Assembly (NCBI GenBank): GCA_965213925.1
Contig: OZ243927.1
Location: 1,280,001-1,344,000 of the forward strand
Reading direction: 5' to 3'
DNA from: Trueperaceae bacterium
GTDB lineage: Bacteria > Deinococcota > Deinococci > Deinococcales > Trueperaceae
DNA length: 64,000 nucleotides
Positions 2,553 through 14,010 of the stretch are shown here, piece after piece (positions within the stretch are counted from its first letter, which is position 1; every line of letters starts with the position of its first letter). The notes beneath the pieces were generated by a model. The model did no database searches, had not been told where the DNA came from, and worked only from the letters and a program-made list of their open reading frames with translations. The translations under genes and the position numbers were made by a program.

Positions 2553-3602
2553 TTATGTGAGATTCGGCAAGGGTAGCCGCGTCACCTTAACAGCGCTGAT
2601 GAGGAGGCGGATACCAACCTCTTGTAAGTAGGCGTCGGCGCGGGGCAGTGCGCCCCAGGCGACGCCGCGCTGCCACACGAAAGAGGTTATCTCTCTACCT
2701 AGCTCGTCCTCGAGCCTCTGGAGCGCGCCCACGCTCTCGAGCCGCAAATCATTCCTCGCGTCGTACGGGTCAGCGTGCGTCATAGTGTGACAGGTGAAAG
2801 CGTGTCCTTGCGCCGCTAAACCGCGCACCTCGTCCCAAGTGAGAGCGAGGCGTCCGTCTTCGTACTCGAGCGGGTCCACGTCGATTTCGTGCGCGGCGGC
2901 GAAACTGGCTTGTCCGTGAACAGGCGTGTCGATAAAGCCCGGAATAAGGCAGAATATGCCCGTTAAGCCTAGTTCACTAAGGAGCGGCGCGGCAACGTCA
3001 ATGTGGTTGCGGGTTCCTTCGTAAAACACGAGCAAGATGGGCGGACGCTCATCTGTCCAGGATTCGCCTGCTACGAGCTTTTCCAAATCCGATATGCCGA
3101 TGCTCTTAAATCGCTCTGCAAGCGCCCCGAGTTGCGCTCTGAGTTTGTCCTTATCTTCAGCAAACGTGTTGTGAAAGTTGACCGAGCGGACAAAGCGTCC
3201 GCTGCGAAGGGAGCGGATGAGATACGTGGTGTCTGTGTGTTCGTCCGGAGTCAAGTCCGCCGCCGAAGAGGTGAAACTTCGGCGTTCGAGCGGTGCGGCG
3301 TCCCGCCCGAAGTCATAAAAGGCGACTAGCTCGAGCGCCAACTGCAAGGCCCTGGCGGGCTCAGAAGTGAAACGCTGAGAGGTCAGCAGACGCGCTGTGA
3401 CCTCTTGAACGGCGCGAGCAGGCCTATAGTTCGCCGGGTCGATCGTGCCGGAGAGGTCTGCTTGACCGGGAGCGTTGAGGTCCTCGAATGCCAAGACCAT
3501 CTCGACGCCCTCCCTGGAATAGACGCGCTTGGCGAGACGCTCAGCGTGCGCCTTGGCGTTTTGAATGAGGTCGTCTAAGTCCATTGCTTTACGGCTTTTC
3601 AC
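2553..3602 (-). CDS. Polysaccharide deacetylase (NodB/CE4-like) with an approximately 100-aa N-terminal extension
   Basis: VNFH, LLVFYEG (variant of TFDDG), LTWDEVRGLAAQGH.F.CHTMTH and LEDELGREITSF. Overlaps the end of the YcaO gene. Confidence 0.75.
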   Translation of the reverse strand: MKSRKAMDLDDLIQNAKAHAERLAKRVYSREGVEMVLAFEDLNAPGQADLSGTIDPANYRPARAVQEVTARLLTSQRFTSEPARALQLALELVAFYDFGRDAAPLERRSFTSSAADLTPDEHTDTTYLIRSLRSGRFVRSVNFHNTFAEDKDKLRAQLGALAERFKSIGISDLEKLVAGESWTDERPPILLVFYEGTRNHIDVAAPLLSELGLTGIFCLIPGFIDTPVHGQASFAAAHEIDVDPLEYEDGRLALTWDEVRGLAAQGHAFTCHTMTHADPYDARNDLRLESVGALQRLEDELGREITSFVWQRGVAWGALPRADAYLQEVGIRLLISAVKVTRLPLPNLT

Positions 3603-5082
3603 CTAATGCGTAGCGTACTGCGTGTCGTGCGGGTTCTCGGTAGAGAGGGTAGAGGTCGCCCACGATCTCTTTCAATTTTTCGGCATCAAACCAAGCTTTA
3701 TCACCGAAACGAGCCTCGGCAGCGTCTGTCAAATAGATGCGTTTTGCACCTGGCGGCGGTGTGCCTAATCCGACGAGCGGGCTCTCTCGTGCCAGAAGTC
3801 GGCGCACGTTGCGCTCGCCGATGCGTCCATAGGAGGCGGTTTCGACTTCCAAACCGGGAATCACGACCTTAACCGCCCTGACGCCCTGCTCCCTTGCTTG
3901 GGGGGTGGCTAGCTCGAGGTACAAAATGTCAAAACCCTCTAAACGCTTGGCGACCTCTTGCAGCCGCGTTTCAGGGGTTGCGTTTGCTAAGTCGGGATGC
4001 TCCGGTAGCGTTCCGAAGGGGATACGTTCTTGTTCTTGGTAGATGGGCGTAAGCTCCGCTTTGAGTTCGGCAGGGTAGAGGTTGAGCCAGTGTTTCATGG
4101 TCTCGAGGGTTCTTTGCTCCTCGGTAACGTTCTGCGCGTGAGCGAAGTGGGCGTCTAAATAGCCTTCGGGTGAACCTTCTGCGACGTTTGCAAGAGGTCC
4201 GTGACTAAAGGCTAGACGTGCTCTCGAGAAAGCAAATTCTAAAAGCGCTTTACGGAGTGCCGCCGCACGGTCTAAGTCGCACGCCTCACCGCCCGCTGCA
4301 AGTTTAATCTGCGGCGCGTCGTCATCCGGTCCATAACCGTTCACATAGAGGTTGATAAGACCAAAGTCCCTTGCGGCGAGTTTGACGTTGACGGTGAGTC
4401 CCTCCTCTTCCAACCGCTCCAAAATCGCCTTAGTTGTATCAGGCACACCTTCCGAGAGGTCAAGTACGCGCCCTTGGTCGAGCGCCCTATAGTTCACGCT
4501 GTTGCCGTCGCGCTGCAAAAGCTCCAACGCGCCGTGGCAGAGACCTCTTGTGACGCTAAGACCTGCACCGAGACCATTGGAGACTGGGAGGAAAAGAGGT
4601 TCGTAGCCTTCGGGAAGTTCGGCGGGGCTCGAGGCGGCAGCCTCTAAGAGCACCCATTTCGACCCTTCTGGATAACGTTTCATGGAGACCCAGAAACGCA
4701 TCATATCTGCACTATAGCCACAACCCGTGTCCAGAGCGAGCGTCACGGGATTAACCACTGCGCCCGCGCCGTAAGTTACCACCAAATCGTGGTAAGAGCC
4801 TCGTTCTGTCTTTAGCTTCGGCACGACCCACAAGCTCTGCACTCGCTCGTGCAGTTCGCCGAGGGAGCCGACCTCAGCTTGGGCGTCACTAAGCCCATAG
4901 CCCGCGCCGCCGCCAAGAGGTCCGGGCAGAAAGGTGGACGCCCACGAATGAACGCCCGCCTGCTCAGCCGCGCTATCAAACCCGGTGATCAGAAAGTGAA
5001 AGAACGTGCCCTTCGGTAGTGCCGCTTTGTAGCGCTCTACGACCTCTTGGAGCGACACCTCTTGTTCTTCCTGCTGAGTCAC
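3589..5082 (-). CDS. YcaO-family ATP-dependent amide-activating enzyme
   Basis: GAGYG, GELHER, SNGLGAG, ALELLQRDG, KALLEFAFSR and VKVVIPGLE match YcaO motifs. No C-terminal PxPxP. Confidence 0.85.
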   Translation of the reverse strand: MTQQEEQEVSLQEVVERYKAALPKGTFFHFLITGFDSAAEQAGVHSWASTFLPGPLGGGAGYGLSDAQAEVGSLGELHERVQSLWVVPKLKTERGSYHDLVVTYGAGAVVNPVTLALDTGCGYSADMMRFWVSMKRYPEGSKWVLLEAAASSPAELPEGYEPLFLPVSNGLGAGLSVTRGLCHGALELLQRDGNSVNYRALDQGRVLDLSEGVPDTTKAILERLEEEGLTVNVKLAARDFGLINLYVNGYGPDDDAPQIKLAAGGEACDLDRAAALRKALLEFAFSRARLAFSHGPLANVAEGSPEGYLDAHFAHAQNVTEEQRTLETMKHWLNLYPAELKAELTPIYQEQERIPFGTLPEHPDLANATPETRLQEVAKRLEGFDILYLELATPQAREQGVRAVKVVIPGLEVETASYGRIGERNVRRLLARESPLVGLGTPPPGAKRIYLTDAAEARFGDKAWFDAEKLKEIVGDLYPLYREPARHAVRYALGEKP

Positions 5083-5954
5083 CCCTTAATGCCCGACATA
5101 GTGAGCCCTTTGACGTAGTAGCGTTGCAGCATTAAGAAGAGGATGGCTAACGGCACGGTGCTCACCGCTAGCGCCGCTTGCTGCAACGACTCGTCCTCGA
5201 TGTTGCCGAATGCGCCGCGCAAGAGGTAGATGCCGACGGGCAAGGTCTCTAAGTCAGGCGCGGAGCGGGTGATGGTCAGCGTCCAGATAAACTCGTTCCA
5301 CTGGTAGACGAAAACGAAGATGCCGAGCGTCGCCAGCGCAGGTTTGACGAGCGGCAAGACGATCTGCGCGAAGATGCGGAACTCGCTGCAGCCGTCGATA
5401 CGGGCGGCCTCGAGCAGTTCCGTCGGGATATTCACCATGAACTGCCGCATCATAAAGATGCCGTACCAGGTGATGAGAAAGGGTAAAATGAGCGCCGCGT
5501 ACGTCCCCAAGAGCCCCGTTCCTCCCTGACCCAAAACGCCGTTGCCGCCCGCCAGCGGAAAGAAGCGCATGATGAAAAACATCGGGATGAGAAAGAGGAA
5601 AAAGGGGAACATCTGCGCGGACAAGACGCTCCGAAAAAACCAGTTGCGCCCCCAGAACTGATACTTGGCGAGCGCGAAGCCCGCCATCGTGCTCGTTAAG
5701 AGCTGCAAAACGGTGATCGTTACGGTGACGATGGTGCTGTTGATGTACCACTTCTGTATTGGGAGGCTCTGAAAGACTTCCCGGTAGATGCTCCACTGCG
5801 GGTCGGAGGGCCAGAAGACGGGCGGCTGCGCGAAGCGCTCGGCGGGGGTGCGCAGTGCGCCCACGAACATCTCGAAAAAGGGCAGGAGCATGATCGCGCC
5901 GCCCAACACAAGGAGTGCATATTTGATCATGCTGCCTACTCGGTTGCTTATCAT
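5079..5954 (-). CDS. Carbohydrate ABC transporter permease (MalG-like)
   Basis: IPTELLEAARIDG EAA loop, multiple TM helices, C-terminal QRYYVKGLTMSGIKG. Confidence 0.93.
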   Translation of the reverse strand: MISNRVGSMIKYALLVLGGAIMLLPFFEMFVGALRTPAERFAQPPVFWPSDPQWSIYREVFQSLPIQKWYINSTIVTVTITVLQLLTSTMAGFALAKYQFWGRNWFFRSVLSAQMFPFFLFLIPMFFIMRFFPLAGGNGVLGQGGTGLLGTYAALILPFLITWYGIFMMRQFMVNIPTELLEAARIDGCSEFRIFAQIVLPLVKPALATLGIFVFVYQWNEFIWTLTITRSAPDLETLPVGIYLLRGAFGNIEDESLQQAALAVSTVPLAILFLMLQRYYVKGLTMSGIKG

Positions 5955-5966
5955 CGCGATCCCTTT

Positions 5967-6914
5967 CTAGTAAGATTCAATGCCGCCTCGCCTAAAAATC
6001 CGCAGTTGCACCAGCGTGATCAGAAAAATGATGACAAAGAGTATAAACGCTGCCGCTGCCGCGCGGCCCATGCGCAAATCCGTAAAGGCCATCTGGTACA
6101 TGTAGAGCGCGGTGACGTTCGTGCTCTGCACCGGACCGCCTCCGGTCAACACCAGGATGAGCGCGAACGAGGCTCCCATCGCGGAGATGAAGCTCGTGAT
6201 GCTGACGAAGAGCAGCGTCGGGCGAATCAGCGGAACGGTGACATGCCAAAACATCTGCAAGGTGTTTGCGCCGTCTACCTTGGCTGCGTTATAAAACGCA
6301 TCGTCAATTCCCTCCAAACCCGCCGAGAAGAGAATCATGTTTTGTCCCATGTAGTACCAGACCGCCACGATGATGACCGCCCACATCGCCACAGACGGGT
6401 CGCTCAGCCAGTTCGGTCCGTTGATACCGACCCAAGCGAGCACGCGGTTGATGAGCCCACCGTTGCCGTCCAAGATGAACTGCCACAAAAAGCCGATGGC
6501 GGCGACGTTGGTAATCATCGGCAGGAAAAAGAGCGAGCGCCACAACGCTCGGTAGCGGCTCTGTGTAAAAACGAAGGCGATGACGAGAGCCAACGGTACG
6601 CCGACGAGCACCGTGCCGAACGCGAAGACGAGCGTGTGCCGGAGCGACAAGAGGAACGTCGCGTCGCTAAAGAGGTAGACGAAGTTGTCTAAACCGATCC
6701 AGTTCGGCGCGGAGAGTGGGTTCCAGCGCGTGAAGGTGAGGTAGAGCGAAAAACCGATAGGGAGTAAGAAAAAGACGACGAAGAAGATAAAGGTGGGCGC
6801 GAGAAAGACGTAGGGAGCCCAGTCTTTTTGTTGGATGCGGCGTTTATTAGGAGGTTTAGACGCTACAGTGACATTCGCGTCTTTTGCCGCGTCGGATGTG
6901 GGTTTGGTTGTCAT
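5967..6914 (-). CDS. Carbohydrate ABC transporter permease (MalF-like)
   Basis: WIGLDNF, PNWLSDP and FYNAAKVDGA. Start taken at the ATG at 6914. Confidence 0.92.
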   Translation of the reverse strand: MTTKPTSDAAKDANVTVASKPPNKRRIQQKDWAPYVFLAPTFIFFVVFFLLPIGFSLYLTFTRWNPLSAPNWIGLDNFVYLFSDATFLLSLRHTLVFAFGTVLVGVPLALVIAFVFTQSRYRALWRSLFFLPMITNVAAIGFLWQFILDGNGGLINRVLAWVGINGPNWLSDPSVAMWAVIIVAVWYYMGQNMILFSAGLEGIDDAFYNAAKVDGANTLQMFWHVTVPLIRPTLLFVSITSFISAMGASFALILVLTGGGPVQSTNVTALYMYQMAFTDLRMGRAAAAAFILFVIIFLITLVQLRIFRRGGIESY

Positions 6915-7052
6915 AGAAGTGGATACGTGTGCATAGAAGTGACCTCGCTCGAGCTTCCTATTCCAAAGAGGTGAGTTCACATAGCGAAAGAGGATGCAAG
7001 TGAGAGTCTCGAGCCCTAAGCTCGAGACCTCTTCGTAGTACATTTCAGTGCG

Positions 7053-8288
7053 TCAGTAATACTCCGCCAGAATATTGCTGATTTCGCTGTCCGCCCTCGA
7101 GAGTGCCTCTTCAGGCGCTAACTCGCCGCGCCACGCCCGCTCGATATAGGTCTGCAAAATCCGCTCGATCTCGCTCGCTTGCACCACGTTGGGCTCGGTG
7201 ATGGAACGGTCCAGCGCCTCGACAAAGGGCGCGGTGAAGAAGTCGCCGAGTTCGCCTTGGGCGTTCTGAATGTCCGTTTGGTTGGCGGTTAATGCGCCCA
7301 AGTCTACGAGCATCTGCCCCATGCAGGAGGGTTCGCCCTCAGCTTGCGAGGAGTTGAGCCACTCCAAAAACGCCCACGCCTCGTCCTGCACGTCGCTGTT
7401 GTTGTCCACCGCGTAGAAGAAGGCGTACTGGAGGCTCTGCCAGTTTTCGCCCTGCGGAATCGGTGCGACGCCGACGGTCTCCTCGAACTGGTCGCCGAAG
7501 GCGGCTTGGAGTTGCGACTCCAACCACACGGGTTGAATCTCCATTGCGACAAGTCCACTGTTAAAGTCGTCCACCGTCAGGTTCGGCGTGGCGGCGTTCG
7601 CTTCGAAGAGGCTGACCTGTTGCTGTAATGCCTCCAACGCTTCAGGCGTATTCAGATTCGTCGCGGAGAAGTCCTCGGTGAAGAGGTCTACGCCCTTCGA
7701 GTAGAGGAGCGTCAGATAGGGGTGGACGACCTCAGCTGTCGTGTTTCCCGCCGCAAAACCGGACTGGGTGATTTGCCCCTGGTCGTTCGTCTTCGTGGCA
7801 GCCTTCGCGACCTCTTGCACCTCCGCCCAAGTGGTCGGCGGCGCGTCGTAGCCCGCTTCTTGCAGGAGCTTCTTGTTGTAAATCAGCATGTAGTTGCTGA
7901 CCTCAGTCGGGACACCCCAAAGTTGGTCCTGGATGGTGGCAGCGTCCACCGTGTTATCCACATAGTTGTTCTGCACGAAGTTGATGATAGTTTCGGGCGG
8001 CTCCGCCAAGATGCTGTTCTCGACGAGCTGCGCGCCCCAGATGGAGTAGACGTGGTAGATGTCGGGCGATTGCCCACCCAAGCGAGAGGTCAAGATCGTC
8101 TGCAAATAGTCGCCGTAAGTAATCTGTTGGTGCTCAATCTCGACGCCGTTTTGCTCCTCGTAGGTGGTGAAACAAGGTTCTAAGACCGCGATACTTTCAG
8201 GCGGATAGTGGGTTGCGACGGTAATCGTCTGCGCGTGGACGCTCCCTAAAAGGAATAGGACGCCTAACCAAAGGACAAAGTGTCTCAT
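7053..8288 (-). CDS. Sugar ABC transporter substrate-binding protein
   Basis: Signal peptide MRHFVLWLGVLFLLGSVHA, SPDI, LIYNKKLLQEAGYDAPPTTWAE. AGGAG RBS before the ATG at 8288. Confidence 0.92.
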   Translation of the reverse strand: MRHFVLWLGVLFLLGSVHAQTITVATHYPPESIAVLEPCFTTYEEQNGVEIEHQQITYGDYLQTILTSRLGGQSPDIYHVYSIWGAQLVENSILAEPPETIINFVQNNYVDNTVDAATIQDQLWGVPTEVSNYMLIYNKKLLQEAGYDAPPTTWAEVQEVAKAATKTNDQGQITQSGFAAGNTTAEVVHPYLTLLYSKGVDLFTEDFSATNLNTPEALEALQQQVSLFEANAATPNLTVDDFNSGLVAMEIQPVWLESQLQAAFGDQFEETVGVAPIPQGENWQSLQYAFFYAVDNNSDVQDEAWAFLEWLNSSQAEGEPSCMGQMLVDLGALTANQTDIQNAQGELGDFFTAPFVEALDRSITEPNVVQASEIERILQTYIERAWRGELAPEEALSRADSEISNILAEYY

Positions 8289-8469
8289 AAGTCTCCTCGT
8301 AGTGTGGAATATTTCACTTAGAGCATAGCGCACGTACTGAACAGATTTTGGGTGCTGATTGACGTTTGCAGACTCGGGTTACTTCGGAGCTTGCAAGGAG
8401 ATTCTGACAGAACGTGTATCATCTGAACGTTAGGTCGGAGCAAGTCAATCGTTCGAATTTAGGAGGCAA

Positions 8470-9806: not shown

Positions 9807-9836
9807 AAAGAGCGACTTATAAGGTCGCTCTTTTTT
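9807..9836. terminator. Bidirectional intrinsic terminator between thpR and the small peptide gene
   Basis: AAAGAGCGAC-TTATAAG-GTCGCTCTTTTTT hairpin between convergent genes. Confidence 0.75.
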
Positions 9837-9860
9837 ACGCCGTAAAACATAGCGTATGAA

Positions 9861-9989
9861 TTAACCACCCCAAGCGCTGCTTCTTCCGTCGGTCGAGGGT
9901 GACGAGCTTTGGTATTTGCCTGCGACGCTGGTGCCGAATCCGAGGCTCAAGAGGCTGACGGTGAGGGCGACGAGCATTTTCTTTTTCAT
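9861..9989 (-). CDS. Small secreted peptide, 42 aa (MKKKMLVALTVSLLSLGFGTSVAGKYQSSSPSTDGRSSAWGG); candidate signalling-peptide precursor
   Basis: Strong RBS (AAAAGGAGAGAATC-ATG), Sec-type signal peptide ending in SVA, and a terminator just downstream. The C-terminus matches the repeats in the neighbouring subtilase. Below the ORF-track size cutoff. Confidence 0.85.
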   Translation of the reverse strand: MKKKMLVALTVSLLSLGFGTSVAGKYQSSSPSTDGRSSAWGG

Positions 9990-10045
9990 GATTCTCTCCT
10001 TTTCGCGCCGGGGTTTCTTCCCTGGTTTGCTCTTATCTTAAAGAG

Positions 10046-10146
10046 CAAAGGTTGCTAAAGGGTTGCCAAAAAGGAGGCAAAAGGTTGCTTTTTTCGCACC
10101 GTCAAAAATAAAAAAATTCACAAGTTCAGCGCATGGCAACCTTTTT
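10046..10146. promoter_or_regulatory. Phased GGTTGC direct repeats plus one inverted copy in the divergent promoter
   Basis: GGTTGC at 10050, 10061 and 10083 (11-bp phase), a degenerate copy near 10073, and inverted GCAACC at 10136. A -10-like TAAGAT on the minus strand at 10040-10035. Confidence 0.55.
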
Positions 10147-10262
10147 GAACCGCACGGCCGGCGTGTGAGTTTTTTGTAAGAGGGCGTGCTCTAGGCTGAT
10201 GGGGCAGAAGTATCGGGTAGGGGGATAGCTTGAAACCAAGCCTCTGCCTCTAGGAGCGCTCT

Positions 10263-11939
10263 ATGTTCAACCGTCTTATCCTGTCAACCCCTTATACAAG
10301 GCGCGTGCTCTTGACGACTACGCTTGCGCTCTCGCTCGGCGGGTGCGGTCTCTCTCCGAGTGAGGACGCCCGTCCGCTCGGCGCTGACGTCCCCGATCCT
10401 CAGTACGCGCTCACCGTCGACCTCAGCGCCAACGATACGCTCACCGGTGTCGAAGCGGCGTATGGCGGCAAGGTGCTCGTCTGGGAGCCGGAAGCATTTG
10501 CGGTCGTAGGGGTGAACGAAAAAGTAGAGGGGCTACTCGAGACCAACGACGATGTCTTCTTGTTCGGTGGTGGGCGTGCGCGAATGGAGGGGCGTTCTTC
10601 CGCTTGGGCTGGTGGACGCTCATCCGCTTGGGCGGGCGGACGTTCTTCCGCTTGGGCTGGTGGACGCTCATCTGCTTGGGCTGGCGGGACCTACGCCTGG
10701 ATGCCTAAAAACACCTCCCTCTGGCAACAGGTTCGTCTGCAAGAAGGGCACGCGCTTGCTAGCAATTTGGGATACGGCGTCAAGGTTGCTGTTATTGATA
10801 CGGGCGTCGACCTCGAGCACCCGGCTTTAAGAGAGGCGTTAGCCCCAGAGAAAGAGTGGTGGGACTTCTATGACGGCGACGCCACGCCTCAAGAGGAGGG
10901 CGTTCTGGGCGAGGGAGGCTACGGACATGGTACCAACGTCGCGGGCATTGTCCGCCAAGTCGCGCCGCGCGCCACAATTCTTCCCATTCGCGTGCTCGGA
11001 CCTGGCGGCAGCGGCAACCTGACCGACGTCGCCTCGGCGATTCACTGGGCGGTGAAGATGAAGGCGGACGTCATCAACTTGAGTTTAGGGAGCGACGAAG
11101 AGGTCAAGGCGATCGAAGAGGTCATCGACACGGCGGTGAAAAAAGGCGTGCTCGTCGTCGCCTCGACGGGCAACACGGGCGACACGGCTGTGTCCTATCC
11201 GGCGCGCTCGGCGACGCGGGCAGAAACGGCTCCGGGGCGGCTCAGCGTGACGAGCGTCGATAACGCAGACGTCAAGTCCGACTTCGCGACGTACCGCGCT
11301 GAGGTCGAACTCTCCGCGCCCGGTGAGAACGTCTACAGTCCGGCTCCAGGGGAACGCTTGGCGGCTTGGAGCGGCACCTCGATGGCTGCGCCGATGGCGT
11401 CTGGCGCGCTCGCGCTCGCGCTCGGCGAGAAACTCAGCGTTAAGCGCAAAGAACTCGCCGAGGCGCTCAAAGCGCAAAGCTTTGACCTCTACGCCGAGGA
11501 AGATAACGCAGACTACGTCGGTCAGTTGGGCGAGGGGCGTTTAGACCTAGCTATCTTTTTAGAAGAGGTTGTCAAGCAGAAGAAGGGTAAAGGCAAAAAA
11601 GACAAAGACGAAGCAGGTCTCTCCTGCGAAGGAGGCGTAACGCGCCTGACGCTGCGCTATACGGGCTCGGATGATGAAGACATCCGCGTGGTCCAAAAGG
11701 ACGGCAAGGCGGTTCTCTTCGAGGGAGAAGTAGACCCTAATGAGACCTTCTCTTTTACGGGTGTTAAGGACGACGGCACGATGGGCAAAGAGATCACCCT
11801 TTACGAAGACGGTAAAAAGCGCGGCAAGTTGCGTACCGATTGCAAAAAACCCATCGGTCCTGGGTTGGTTGAGAAGAACTTCGAAGTGGTCTCTGGCGAG
11901 AGCTTAGGTGAACCGCTCGCCCCAGTGAGCAAAGAGTAA
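10263..11939 (+). CDS. S8 subtilisin-like serine protease lipoprotein with (GRSSAWAG)x4 repeats and a C-terminal Cys-flanked beta domain
   Basis: Lipobox LGGC; catalytic Asp in VAVIDTG, His in GHGTNVAG, Ser in SGTSMAAP; oxyanion Asn in STGN. Confidence 0.92.
   Translation: MFNRLILSTPYTRRVLLTTTLALSLGGCGLSPSEDARPLGADVPDPQYALTVDLSANDTLTGVEAAYGGKVLVWEPEAFAVVGVNEKVEGLLETNDDVFLFGGGRARMEGRSSAWAGGRSSAWAGGRSSAWAGGRSSAWAGGTYAWMPKNTSLWQQVRLQEGHALASNLGYGVKVAVIDTGVDLEHPALREALAPEKEWWDFYDGDATPQEEGVLGEGGYGHGTNVAGIVRQVAPRATILPIRVLGPGGSGNLTDVASAIHWAVKMKADVINLSLGSDEEVKAIEEVIDTAVKKGVLVVASTGNTGDTAVSYPARSATRAETAPGRLSVTSVDNADVKSDFATYRAEVELSAPGENVYSPAPGERLAAWSGTSMAAPMASGALALALGEKLSVKRKELAEALKAQSFDLYAEEDNADYVGQLGEGRLDLAIFLEEVVKQKKGKGKKDKDEAGLSCEGGVTRLTLRYTGSDDEDIRVVQKDGKAVLFEGEVDPNETFSFTGVKDDGTMGKEITLYEDGKKRGKLRTDCKKPIGPGLVEKNFEVVSGESLGEPLAPVSKE
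10590..10688 (+). repeat. Four tandem 24-bp coding repeats encoding GRSSAWAG
   Basis: Units such as GGACGTTCTTCCGCTTGGGCTGGT differ only at synonymous positions. Confidence 0.95.
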
Positions 11940-11967
11940 AAAACACCTTTTAGAAGGAGGAGAGTCT

Positions 11968-14010
11968 ATGTCCGCGCTAAGTCACAACTTTGCTGCTAGC
12001 TCTGTAACTGCGCCTGGAGCCGAAGTCGAAGAGTCGCTCGCTGACGCGGCGGCGGTGCTTGAACAGGACCCGGCGCGGACATTGGAGCTTGCTCACGGCG
12101 TACTCGGTGTATCGGCGAACCTTGCAGTGGCGGCGGAAGCCTCCTTGCTCATCGGCAAAGCGTACTATCAAAAGGGGCATTCAGCCGAAGCGCTGCGCCC
12201 ACTCCTTGAAGCCCACGCGCTGCTGACGGCTGAGGACGCGCAAGCCGCACAAAGCTCCCCGAGTGCGCTCGAGTGCGCTCTCATGCTAGGGCGTGCCCAC
12301 CGTGACCTTGCTCAGTTTGGCGACGCTGCGCGCTGGCTGGACGAAGCCTTAATATTGTCCCGAAGCATGAATAGCCCTTTGGAAGCCGAAGCTCTCAACC
12401 TCCTAGCGGGTGTAGTGGCTGAGAAAGGGGAGTACGGACGCGCGCTCGAGTATCTTAAAGACGCGCTCCCCATCGCCCAACGCCACGGCTTACGGGAGCG
12501 CCAAGCCAATATTTTCGACTACATCGGTCATATAGAATCCTTTCTCGGCAACTATCCGGGCGCTTTAGTGTCCTTGAAGCGAGCGTATGACCTGCTCCAA
12601 AGCGTCGCGCCAGGCTCGCGAAGTGCGATTGCCAACCTCATCAACTTAGGCAACCTCTACCAAGTCATGGGGCAAGACGAGCAGGCGCTCGCCTTTCTGC
12701 AGCGTGCGCGAAAGATTAGCCGCGCGGCGGAGGATACCGTTATGGAGGCGGCGGCGCTCAACAACTTAGCCAACCTCCATTACGACAGAAAGCAGTGGCG
12801 CGTAGCGCAAACTCGCTTCGAGGAGGCGCTCGAGCTTTCTCGTTACGTCAACAACCGGGCTTACGAAATCGACAACTTAGACGGTCTAGGACAGGTGCAA
12901 GTTGCACTAGGACACTTTGAGGACGCGCTCAAAACGCATAGGGCGGCGCTCTCTATCGCCAAGGATGTTGGCGATAGAGGAGGCGAGACGGACGCCCTAC
13001 TCAACTTGGGGCGGGACTACCTCGAGCTGAATCGTCCCGAACATGCGGCGCGCGCTTTAGCTGAAGGGCTCTCGCTCGCTGAGAACTTAGAACGTCTTAA
13101 ATCCGTCTACGAAGCGCACGAACTCCTCGCTAGGGCGTGTGAGGCGAACGGCGACCTGGCGAACGCGCTCTCCCACCAGCGCGAGTTTCACCGTTTGGAA
13201 AGAGCGCTTTTTAGCCGCGAGAGCGAGGAGAAGACGCGCCAGCTCACCGTGCAGTTCGAAGTCGAACGCGCCCGCCACGAAGCCGAAACGTACCGCTTGC
13301 GCACTCAGGTCGCGCAGGAGGCGCGGCGCGAAGCCGAAGCGGCCGTCGCGGAGCGCACCCTGGAACTCGAAGAGGCGCAGCTAGAGGTCGTCACGCGCCT
13401 CGCTCTGGCAGCGGAATACCGCGACGACGTCACCGGCGAGCACACGCGGCGCGTCGGCAGAAACGCCGCCGCCATCGCCTACGCTTTAGGCTGGTCCGAA
13501 GACGAGGTCAAGCTGATGTACACCGCCGCGCGGCTCCACGACGTCGGCAAGATCGGCATCAGCGACGCGGTTTTGCTCAAGCCCGATAAGCTCACCGAGG
13601 ACGAATTCGACCTCATCTGTCACCACACGGTGATCGGCGCGCGCATTTTGTCGGACGGGCGTTCGCAGCTTTTGCAGATGGCTGAAGAGATCGCCCTCGC
13701 CCATCACGAGCGCTGGAACGGGCAGGGCTACCCGTACGGGCTCGTCGGCGAGGCGATCCCCGTAACGGCCAGGATCGTCGCCGTCGCCGACGTGCTCGAC
13801 GCCCTCACGCATGAAAGGCCCTATAAAAAGGCGTGGTCCGTCGCGGAAACGCTCGCAGAGATCGAGCGGGGGAGCGGACGTCACTTCGACCCGCAGGTTG
13901 TGGCGGCGTGCTTGCGCGTCTTTGGCGAGGGTAAGCTTTCGCCCCTCGAGCCCCAAAGCCTAGCGGATACCTTGCGAAATTTATGCGAGGTGTTGGACAG
14001 GCGTTCCTGA
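11968..14010 (+). CDS. TPR-repeat + HD-GYP c-di-GMP phosphodiesterase
   Basis: About 400 aa of TPR-like helices (ALNLLAG, LINLGNLY, ALNNLANL, LDGLGQV, ALLNLGRDY), then EYRDDVTGEHTRRV, LHDVGKIGI and HHERWNGQGYP. No signal peptide or TM segment. Confidence 0.92.
   Translation: MSALSHNFAASSVTAPGAEVEESLADAAAVLEQDPARTLELAHGVLGVSANLAVAAEASLLIGKAYYQKGHSAEALRPLLEAHALLTAEDAQAAQSSPSALECALMLGRAHRDLAQFGDAARWLDEALILSRSMNSPLEAEALNLLAGVVAEKGEYGRALEYLKDALPIAQRHGLRERQANIFDYIGHIESFLGNYPGALVSLKRAYDLLQSVAPGSRSAIANLINLGNLYQVMGQDEQALAFLQRARKISRAAEDTVMEAAALNNLANLHYDRKQWRVAQTRFEEALELSRYVNNRAYEIDNLDGLGQVQVALGHFEDALKTHRAALSIAKDVGDRGGETDALLNLGRDYLELNRPEHAARALAEGLSLAENLERLKSVYEAHELLARACEANGDLANALSHQREFHRLERALFSRESEEKTRQLTVQFEVERARHEAETYRLRTQVAQEARREAEAAVAERTLELEEAQLEVVTRLALAAEYRDDVTGEHTRRVGRNAAAIAYALGWSEDEVKLMYTAARLHDVGKIGISDAVLLKPDKLTEDEFDLICHHTVIGARILSDGRSQLLQMAEEIALAHHERWNGQGYPYGLVGEAIPVTARIVAVADVLDALTHERPYKKAWSVAETLAEIERGSGRHFDPQVVAACLRVFGEGKLSPLEPQSLADTLRNLCEVLDRRS

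Follow-up and report, generated by a model that had tools for sequence, protein, structure and literature searches.

The closest described counterparts of the system reported here are the quorum-sensing systems of the RRNPP(A) type in Bacillota, namely Rap–Phr, NprR–NprX, PlcR–PapR and AimR–AimP, in which a small Sec-type pre-peptide bearing the signal at its C terminus is paired with a cytoplasmic tetratricopeptide repeat (TPR) protein. According to the main text of PMC9765709, RRNPPA genes are found in Firmicutes genera, some of the propeptides carry repeated copies of the signal, and the processing of such multi-copy propeptides is called a mystery. Here we analyse a three-gene cassette in a 64,000-nucleotide stretch ('the window') of a Trueperaceae genome from the phylum Deinococcota (GCA_965213925.1, contig OZ243927.1, positions 1,280,001 to 1,344,000). 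The cassette comprises genes for a predicted secreted pre-peptide of 42 aa, an S8 subtilase lipoprotein with tandem repeats and a TPR–HD-GYP protein (Table 1), which the original prediction had interpreted as the peptide, processing protease and receptor of a Rap/Phr-like system. Across Deinococcota, the peptide tail, the protease repeat and the TPR groove co-vary. The module is real and apparently new to the literature: a search outside subscription journals and supplements returned no description of a peptide/protease/TPR system.

Set beside the RRNPP systems of the Bacilli, the Deinococcota cassette shares the short propeptide (42 aa, within the 10–100 aa given in the main text of PMC10075063) and a receptor candidate containing TPRs. 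In contrast, this receptor has 680 aa rather than about 250–500 aa and ends in an enzyme of cyclic di-GMP (c-di-GMP) turnover, the protease gene intervenes between the two genes in the window (they are direct neighbours in genome G243), copies of the signal lie inside the linked protease, and the gene for the free peptide is optional and in many cases unlinked. Because it departs from two of the five criteria of PMC10075063, receptor length and gene adjacency, we do not file the system as RRNPP. It would work like Rap–Phr and is RRNPP-like, but by published criteria it is not a member. The string 'Deinococc-' is absent from the main text of both PMC10075063 and PMC9765709. The TPR-domain model (predicted local distance difference test, pLDDT, 96) is closest to LGN/Pins (Z 32), whose superhelices bind peptides, ahead of any RRNPP protein: RapI matches with Z 27.3 (root-mean-square deviation 5.8, 357 residues aligned, 13% identity) and NprR with Z 22.6, and no RRNPP chain stands among the best 60 of the 185 sequence matches.

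The tails of the peptides match the protease repeats of their own genomes. At the four variable positions, identity between peptide tail and same-genome repeat was 2.74, compared with 1.08 ± 0.22 after shuffling (n = 19; 18 genomes and one metagenome locus, with G181 left out as no protease was found there), and 0 of 20000 shuffles were as high. Within one genus, the values were 2.71 and 1.25 (n = 14), and the cognate repeat unit was unsurpassed among 102 units for 11 of the 19 peptides. This match holds whether the peptide and protease genes are adjacent or unlinked. Adjacent pairs (peptide/repeat) are RSSAWGG/RSSAWAG in the window's genome (G000), RSNVWAG/RSNVWAG in G023, RSSAWAG/RSSAWAG in G022, KISMWSG/KISMWSG in G132, KMSMWAG/RISMWAG in G185, RMSMWAG/RINMWAG at locus L140 and SMSIWAG/SMGVWAG at L145. 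The unlinked peptides were found without reference to any protease and then matched to one elsewhere in the genome; they include exact matches in G134 and G165 (both ARSMWAG) and G178 (SRSMWAG) and near matches in G152 (SRSIWAS/SRSVWAS) and G183 (ARAYWAG/ARAIWAG). For G180, which lay outside the training alignment, ARSLWAS and SRSIWAS agree at R, S, W, A and S. The original prediction had named homologous loci without matched peptides or co-variation as evidence that would count against it; matched peptides do occur in such loci and vary together with the repeat.

The codons of the window's peptide and repeats differ, as had been reported: 3–4 of 8 codons and 14–16 of 24 nt are shared, and the serines are encoded by AGC in the peptide and by TCN in the protease. 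Throughout the window's genus, 12–18 of 24 nt are shared and the serine codon families are different; because codon use differs between peptide and repeat, DNA-level copying is unlikely in this genus. GC-rich genomes, where 20–22 of 24 nt are shared, are uninformative on this point.

The TPR groove of the adjacent protein also tracks the repeat, a co-variation that the original prediction had proposed looking for. The groove was set before the test as helix-A positions 2, 5, 6, 9, 12 and 13 of seven repeats. Its divergence was corrected for that of the rest of the TPR domain and for protease distance, and set against 1000 conservation-matched column sets. The 29 independent pairs came from 74 loci, seven of the 81 having been left out as judged heptamer-type or atypical. 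Groove divergence rose with repeat difference (partial r 0.49, p 0.002), and five control registers gave r values of −0.05 to −0.31. Leave-one-out values ranged from 0.45 to 0.56, alternative pairings gave r 0.37–0.53 and a stratified permutation gave p 0.009. Between G000 and G023, where repeat and peptide both change from SA to NV, 31 TPR residues differ within residues 100–365, and the only differences in the 42 groove columns are H188Q and S191C. G022 has H/S at 188/191 with SSAW, and G025 has N/S with SNAW. Residue 185 (at about 12520), another groove position, is Tyr in the window's genus and Asn in 69 of 74 receptors. A per-column co-variation analysis was dropped, its outcome being dominated by outlier rows. 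When a complex of the TPR domain and residues 13–42 of the peptide was predicted, the score was 0.02; controls were not folded, and the prediction is used neither for nor against binding.

Linkage of the TPR gene to the protease gene is widespread. It lies directly downstream on the same strand in 84 of 111 protease loci with downstream room and nearby in another arrangement in 8, giving 92 of 111 with a TPR gene within 1.2 kb overall. The TPR proteins of 36 long loci have HD-GYP plus GGDEF (16), HD-GYP (15), GGDEF (2) or no detected output (3), so that HD-GYP and/or GGDEF is present in 33 of 36 loci with room. In the window, the described arrangement of a cytoplasmic TPR array and an intact HD-GYP domain after a 28-nt gap was borne out: no signal or membrane segment is evident by hydropathy (maximum 1.68 over 19 residues), and the motifs HD, HHExh(D/N)GxGYP and RxY[K/R], as defined in the main text of 10.1101/2021.11.05.467447, are complete at residues 524, 579 and 617. 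Like the HD-GYP phosphodiesterases of the RpfG and PmGH families, this domain has every catalytic motif as well as the RxY[K/R] specificity motif, but its input is a TPR array; a word search of that survey's main text does not find 'TPR'.

Subtilisins self-cleave at the junction between their pro and catalytic domains. The window's protease has all the features of an S8A subtilase (Asp-His-Ser triad D179/H222/S373, oxyanion Asn and prodomain), and the repeat-bearing lipoprotease of the original prediction is confirmed with four units, a lipobox and an intact triad. In the model, residues 103–147 (pLDDT <50) form a disordered linker that joins the prodomain to the catalytic domain. The top fold match is unautoprocessed pro-subtilisin E (3whi), with which the protein shares its prodomain and catalytic domain; it differs in the 2–8-copy tryptophan repeat inserted at the junction, which varies between genomes. 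At least two repeat units are present in 114 of 118 distinct proteases, and 117 proteases contain 102 distinct units. Of 125 Deinococcaceae genomes, 81 encode the protease, as do 34 of the 128 from the window's family. Named relatives are Trueperaceae, Deinococcus, Meiothermus and Calidithermus, all pointing to the phylum Deinococcota. The window's genome encodes three further repeat proteases, each adjoining a TPR–GGDEF gene, and no peptide gene was found adjacent to these three paralogous cassettes. By eye, the repeats of many Deinococcus proteases follow an A-B-A pattern in which the middle unit differs, the free peptide resembling A (L122, L156, L247, L248, L258 and L262). L165 has a tandem row of five W-repeat S8 genes and, across 13 kb, no TPR neighbour.

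The small gene itself is less common. Iterated profile searches, which scored about 20 candidates per genome and may therefore have missed some, found full-length pre-peptide homologues as 20 genes in 19 of 364 Deinococcota genomes, and a separate pre-peptide occurs in about one in six protease-bearing genomes. Members combine a signal-peptide pattern with a variable linker and the ending [DNEQ]G-x4-W-[AS]-[GS]-stop; across 19 aligned peptides, the G and W are invariant and the signal-peptide pattern is present in all. In G243, the family peptide, which ends early, after W, is the immediate neighbour of a family receptor (215 bits, TPR–GGDEF–EAL), and no protease was found within 12 kb of this pair. 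A degenerate DNA pattern run on the 364 genomes gave mostly chance matches: the 30 loci returned and 20 more retrieved contained no new signal-peptide open reading frame (ORF), with 126 further matches lying outside this set.

Judged from its sequence, the 42-aa ORF of the window is a real gene under purifying selection. Five independent close pairs of the family gave proportions of synonymous and nonsynonymous differences (pS and pN) of 0.385 and 0.111, a ratio of 0.29, and pN/pS between G000 and G023 is 0.17. It has, as first described, its own ribosome-binding site (AAGGAG), a signal-peptide pattern (a KKK n-region followed by a hydrophobic core, with hydropathy up to 2.66 over nine residues) and the C terminus DGRSSAWGG. 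Secretion by the Sec route is predicted from the basic n-region and hydrophobic core. Among 452 short signal-peptide-like ORFs of this genome led by a ribosome-binding site, only the window's own has a GRSSAWGG-type tail.

It is fairly probable, in our judgement, that the cassette is a peptide-signalling module in which a protease-derived octamer, joined in some genomes by an optional pre-peptide, is re-imported, bound by the TPR protein and converted into a c-di-GMP output. We infer cleavage, release, import, binding and the direction of effect along the following route. The exported S8 lipoprotein would mature by a cut at the prodomain junction, as its pro-subtilisin fold suggests, and the freed disordered linker would be cut into G-x4-W-A-G octamers. 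Because the free gene stops after W-[AS]-[GS], the linker must be cut after WAG and before G if the same product is to result. The separate Sec pre-peptide may add the same or a slightly different octamer and so act as a booster or tuner. The octamer would return through an oligopeptide ABC importer; the window's genome encodes 13 family-5 solute-binding proteins, and no importer gene was found among the large ORFs flanking the cassette. Binding in the TPR groove would then switch the HD-GYP and/or GGDEF domain and change c-di-GMP turnover. Because most cassettes show no peptide gene, the disordered pro-linker of the protease is probably the main source of the signal and the small gene a second one, and the protease is probably a signal precursor and not only a processing enzyme. 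The originally proposed cassette is supported by the co-variation, but its three-gene form is a minority arrangement, peptide genes having been found in 19 of 364 genomes. The strongest version of the idea, a self-releasing pheromone in which the protease is a poly-copy precursor cutting the signal from its own pro-linker, the octamer switches a c-di-GMP enzyme and about 100 allelic dialects exist in Deinococcota, is to our minds evenly poised.

If true, this would place peptide signalling through cytoplasmic TPR proteins in a diderm phylum, wired straight to c-di-GMP, and would provide many orphan TPR–GGDEF/HD-GYP proteins with a ligand. Precursor and protease would here be one polypeptide, which bears on how multi-copy propeptides are processed. 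Outside Deinococcota, S8 relatives have W repeats of 6 residues at the corresponding pro/catalytic junction and lie next to TPR–CHAT genes; all five upstream TPR proteins scanned beside them are TPR–CHAT, and the repeat-in-linker design may feed such outputs in other phyla too. Tandem repeats of this kind, such as GNTWSV, were seen at L041, L050, L063, L065, L080–L083, L188 and other loci. A subtilase–CHAT context has been noted for ECF54 in the main text of PMC8999054, which proposes sigma-factor proteolysis and does not mention a peptide signal; those neighbourhoods differ from the present one in that their output is a caspase-like protease.

Several points weigh against this interpretation. 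The groove positions were assigned from a general TPR register and not from a complex, and one of the four alternative pairings was weaker (r 0.37, p 0.034). Because the genomes are related, the shuffles overstate the match between peptide and repeat, and in 5 of 8 unlinked cases, where the genome holds two proteases, the better match was used and the choice is uncorrected. All eight residues are equal in only 6 of 19 peptides, the window's own ending in WGG and not WAG, and the peptides of L034 and G243 match the repeat poorly. No TPR neighbour lies within 1.2 kb in 19 of 111 protease loci. G181 (L222) has two tandem peptide genes, one holding two motif copies, and no family protease was found there; in the assembly of G023, one extra base interrupts the protease gene near codon 83, upstream of the repeat.

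All of the co-variation results would also fit a system without cell-to-cell signalling, in which the TPR protein binds the repeat of cytoplasmic precursors, or binds it when a cell takes back what it has released locally, and thereby monitors export or envelope proteolysis. Such a role would suit a membrane-anchored protease with no importer gene in its flanks. It is harder to reconcile with peptides that end exactly at the motif and all carry a signal-peptide pattern, and with the allele-like diversity of the repeat units, as kin-specific signals would show; we regard it as unlikely. A second explanation, which we hold to be quite unlikely, retains ligand and receptor but has the free peptide antagonize or modulate the signal that comes from the protease, in parallel with the inhibitor peptides of enterococcal plasmids. 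The peptide gene is indeed accessory and often unlinked, and 13 of the 19 peptides deviate from the repeat in at least one of the eight residues, but the six identical ones would be impossible for an antagonist.

The motif could instead be aimed at the protease, the repeat being an auto-inhibitory or folding element, the peptide its inhibitor or activator and the TPR enzyme merely co-regulated. The position of the repeat beside the active site, at the pro/mature junction, and the common compartment of peptide and protease agree with this. However, segments of the protease cleft did not track the repeat in the same test (r 0.16, p 0.17), in contrast to the TPR groove, and the peptide of G243 adjoins a receptor without a protease, making this explanation very unlikely. 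Finally, the matches could stem from common ancestry of the two genes or from conversion between them at the DNA level, without functional coupling. This would account for the near-identical nucleotides of the GC-rich genomes and for a correlation of repeat distance with overall protease distance (r 0.40), but is highly improbable given the different serine codons in the window's genus and a groove signal that persists after control for overall divergence. The peptide-signalling interpretation specifies the ligand, the receptor residues (188 and 191) and cognate as well as non-cognate pairs, and is thus directly testable with synthetic octamers.

Table 1 Features of the cassette and their positions in the window
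Feature	Position	Strand	Remarks
Hairpin, probable bidirectional terminator, between the convergent LigT-like gene and the pre-peptide gene	9807..9837	.	
Pre-peptide gene, secreted, 42 aa (predicted)	9861..9989	-	ORF inspection, selection, family matches
GRSSAWGG octamer, C-terminal; predicted mature signal (putative mature form)	9864..9887	-	
AAGGAG, ribosome-binding site of the pre-peptide gene	9996..10001	-	7 nt before ATG; kept in three genomes
AAG(G)GTTGC, three direct copies and one inverted; candidate regulator site	10048..10143	.	Divergent promoter region shared by both genes
S8 subtilase lipoprotein, 558 aa	10263..11939	+	PF00082 E 4e-44; fold match
Lipobox LGGC, Cys28 (residues 25-28)	10335..10346	+	Cys invariant in 26 aligned homologues
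Four tandem GRSSAWAG units, residues 110-141	10590..10685	+	Disordered linker, prodomain to catalytic domain
Catalytic domain, D179, H222, N304, S373	10773..11474	+	
Cytoplasmic TPR-HD-GYP protein, 680 aa, candidate receptor	11968..14010	+	28 nt after protease gene
TPR superhelix, with groove positions (chiefly 188 and 191) that co-vary with the repeat	12025..13287	+	
HD-GYP domain with HD, HHExhNGxGYP and RxYK motifs	13417..13899	+	

The divergent promoter region contains four copies of AAG(G)GTTGC in 273 nt, where 0.014 are expected, and the same four are present in G023 and G022; the element was not found in the 200 nt before any of the other 16 peptide genes checked. The terminator first assigned to the small ORF exists as a hairpin with a 10-bp stem (at about 9807–9833), conserved in G023 and different in G022. 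It has a long T-run on the + strand but a short one on the peptide strand, looks stronger as a terminator of the convergent gene, and is absent from the output of a consensus terminator scan. A look for sequencing runs that contain the locus listed no RNA run. Two contig runs of one sample, which may be the source sample, span the locus and list no variant in the pre-peptide gene. Against Pfam and NCBIfam, the pre-peptide gave weak matches only and no family, its Atlas matches were all below 0.9, and a single-protein metagenome scan returned nothing.

The genes flanking the cassette encode a LigT-like protein, an NAD-binding protein and an alpha-amylase. A cyanobactin-type cluster (PatA/PatG) for ribosomally synthesized and post-translationally modified peptides was considered and rejected on the content of the flanking genes and a TIGR03895 score of 50.9 bits against a cut-off of 421. 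Window positions 2553–8333 hold an ABC transporter operon and then a gene at 3589–5082 that by eye looks YcaO-like.

Other short secreted-peptide ORFs with different tails adjoin TPR genes at L229:3198-3392, L313:4476-4622, L235:5963-6100 and L316:3911-4246, in genomes G183, G196, G255 and G125. In the window's genome, a 38-aa signal-peptide ORF at G000:C1:1136885(+) (L342) runs convergently towards an 816-aa protein that has a weak TPR match, next to another HD-domain gene. Three further signal-peptide ORFs of 41–43 aa ending in [FY]RVNR, at G000:C1:1041783(+), 1042077(+) and 3916776(-) (L340 and L341), sit just downstream of HD-domain genes whose N-terminal part has no Pfam match, and together with these genes they possibly form a second peptide–phosphodiesterase system.

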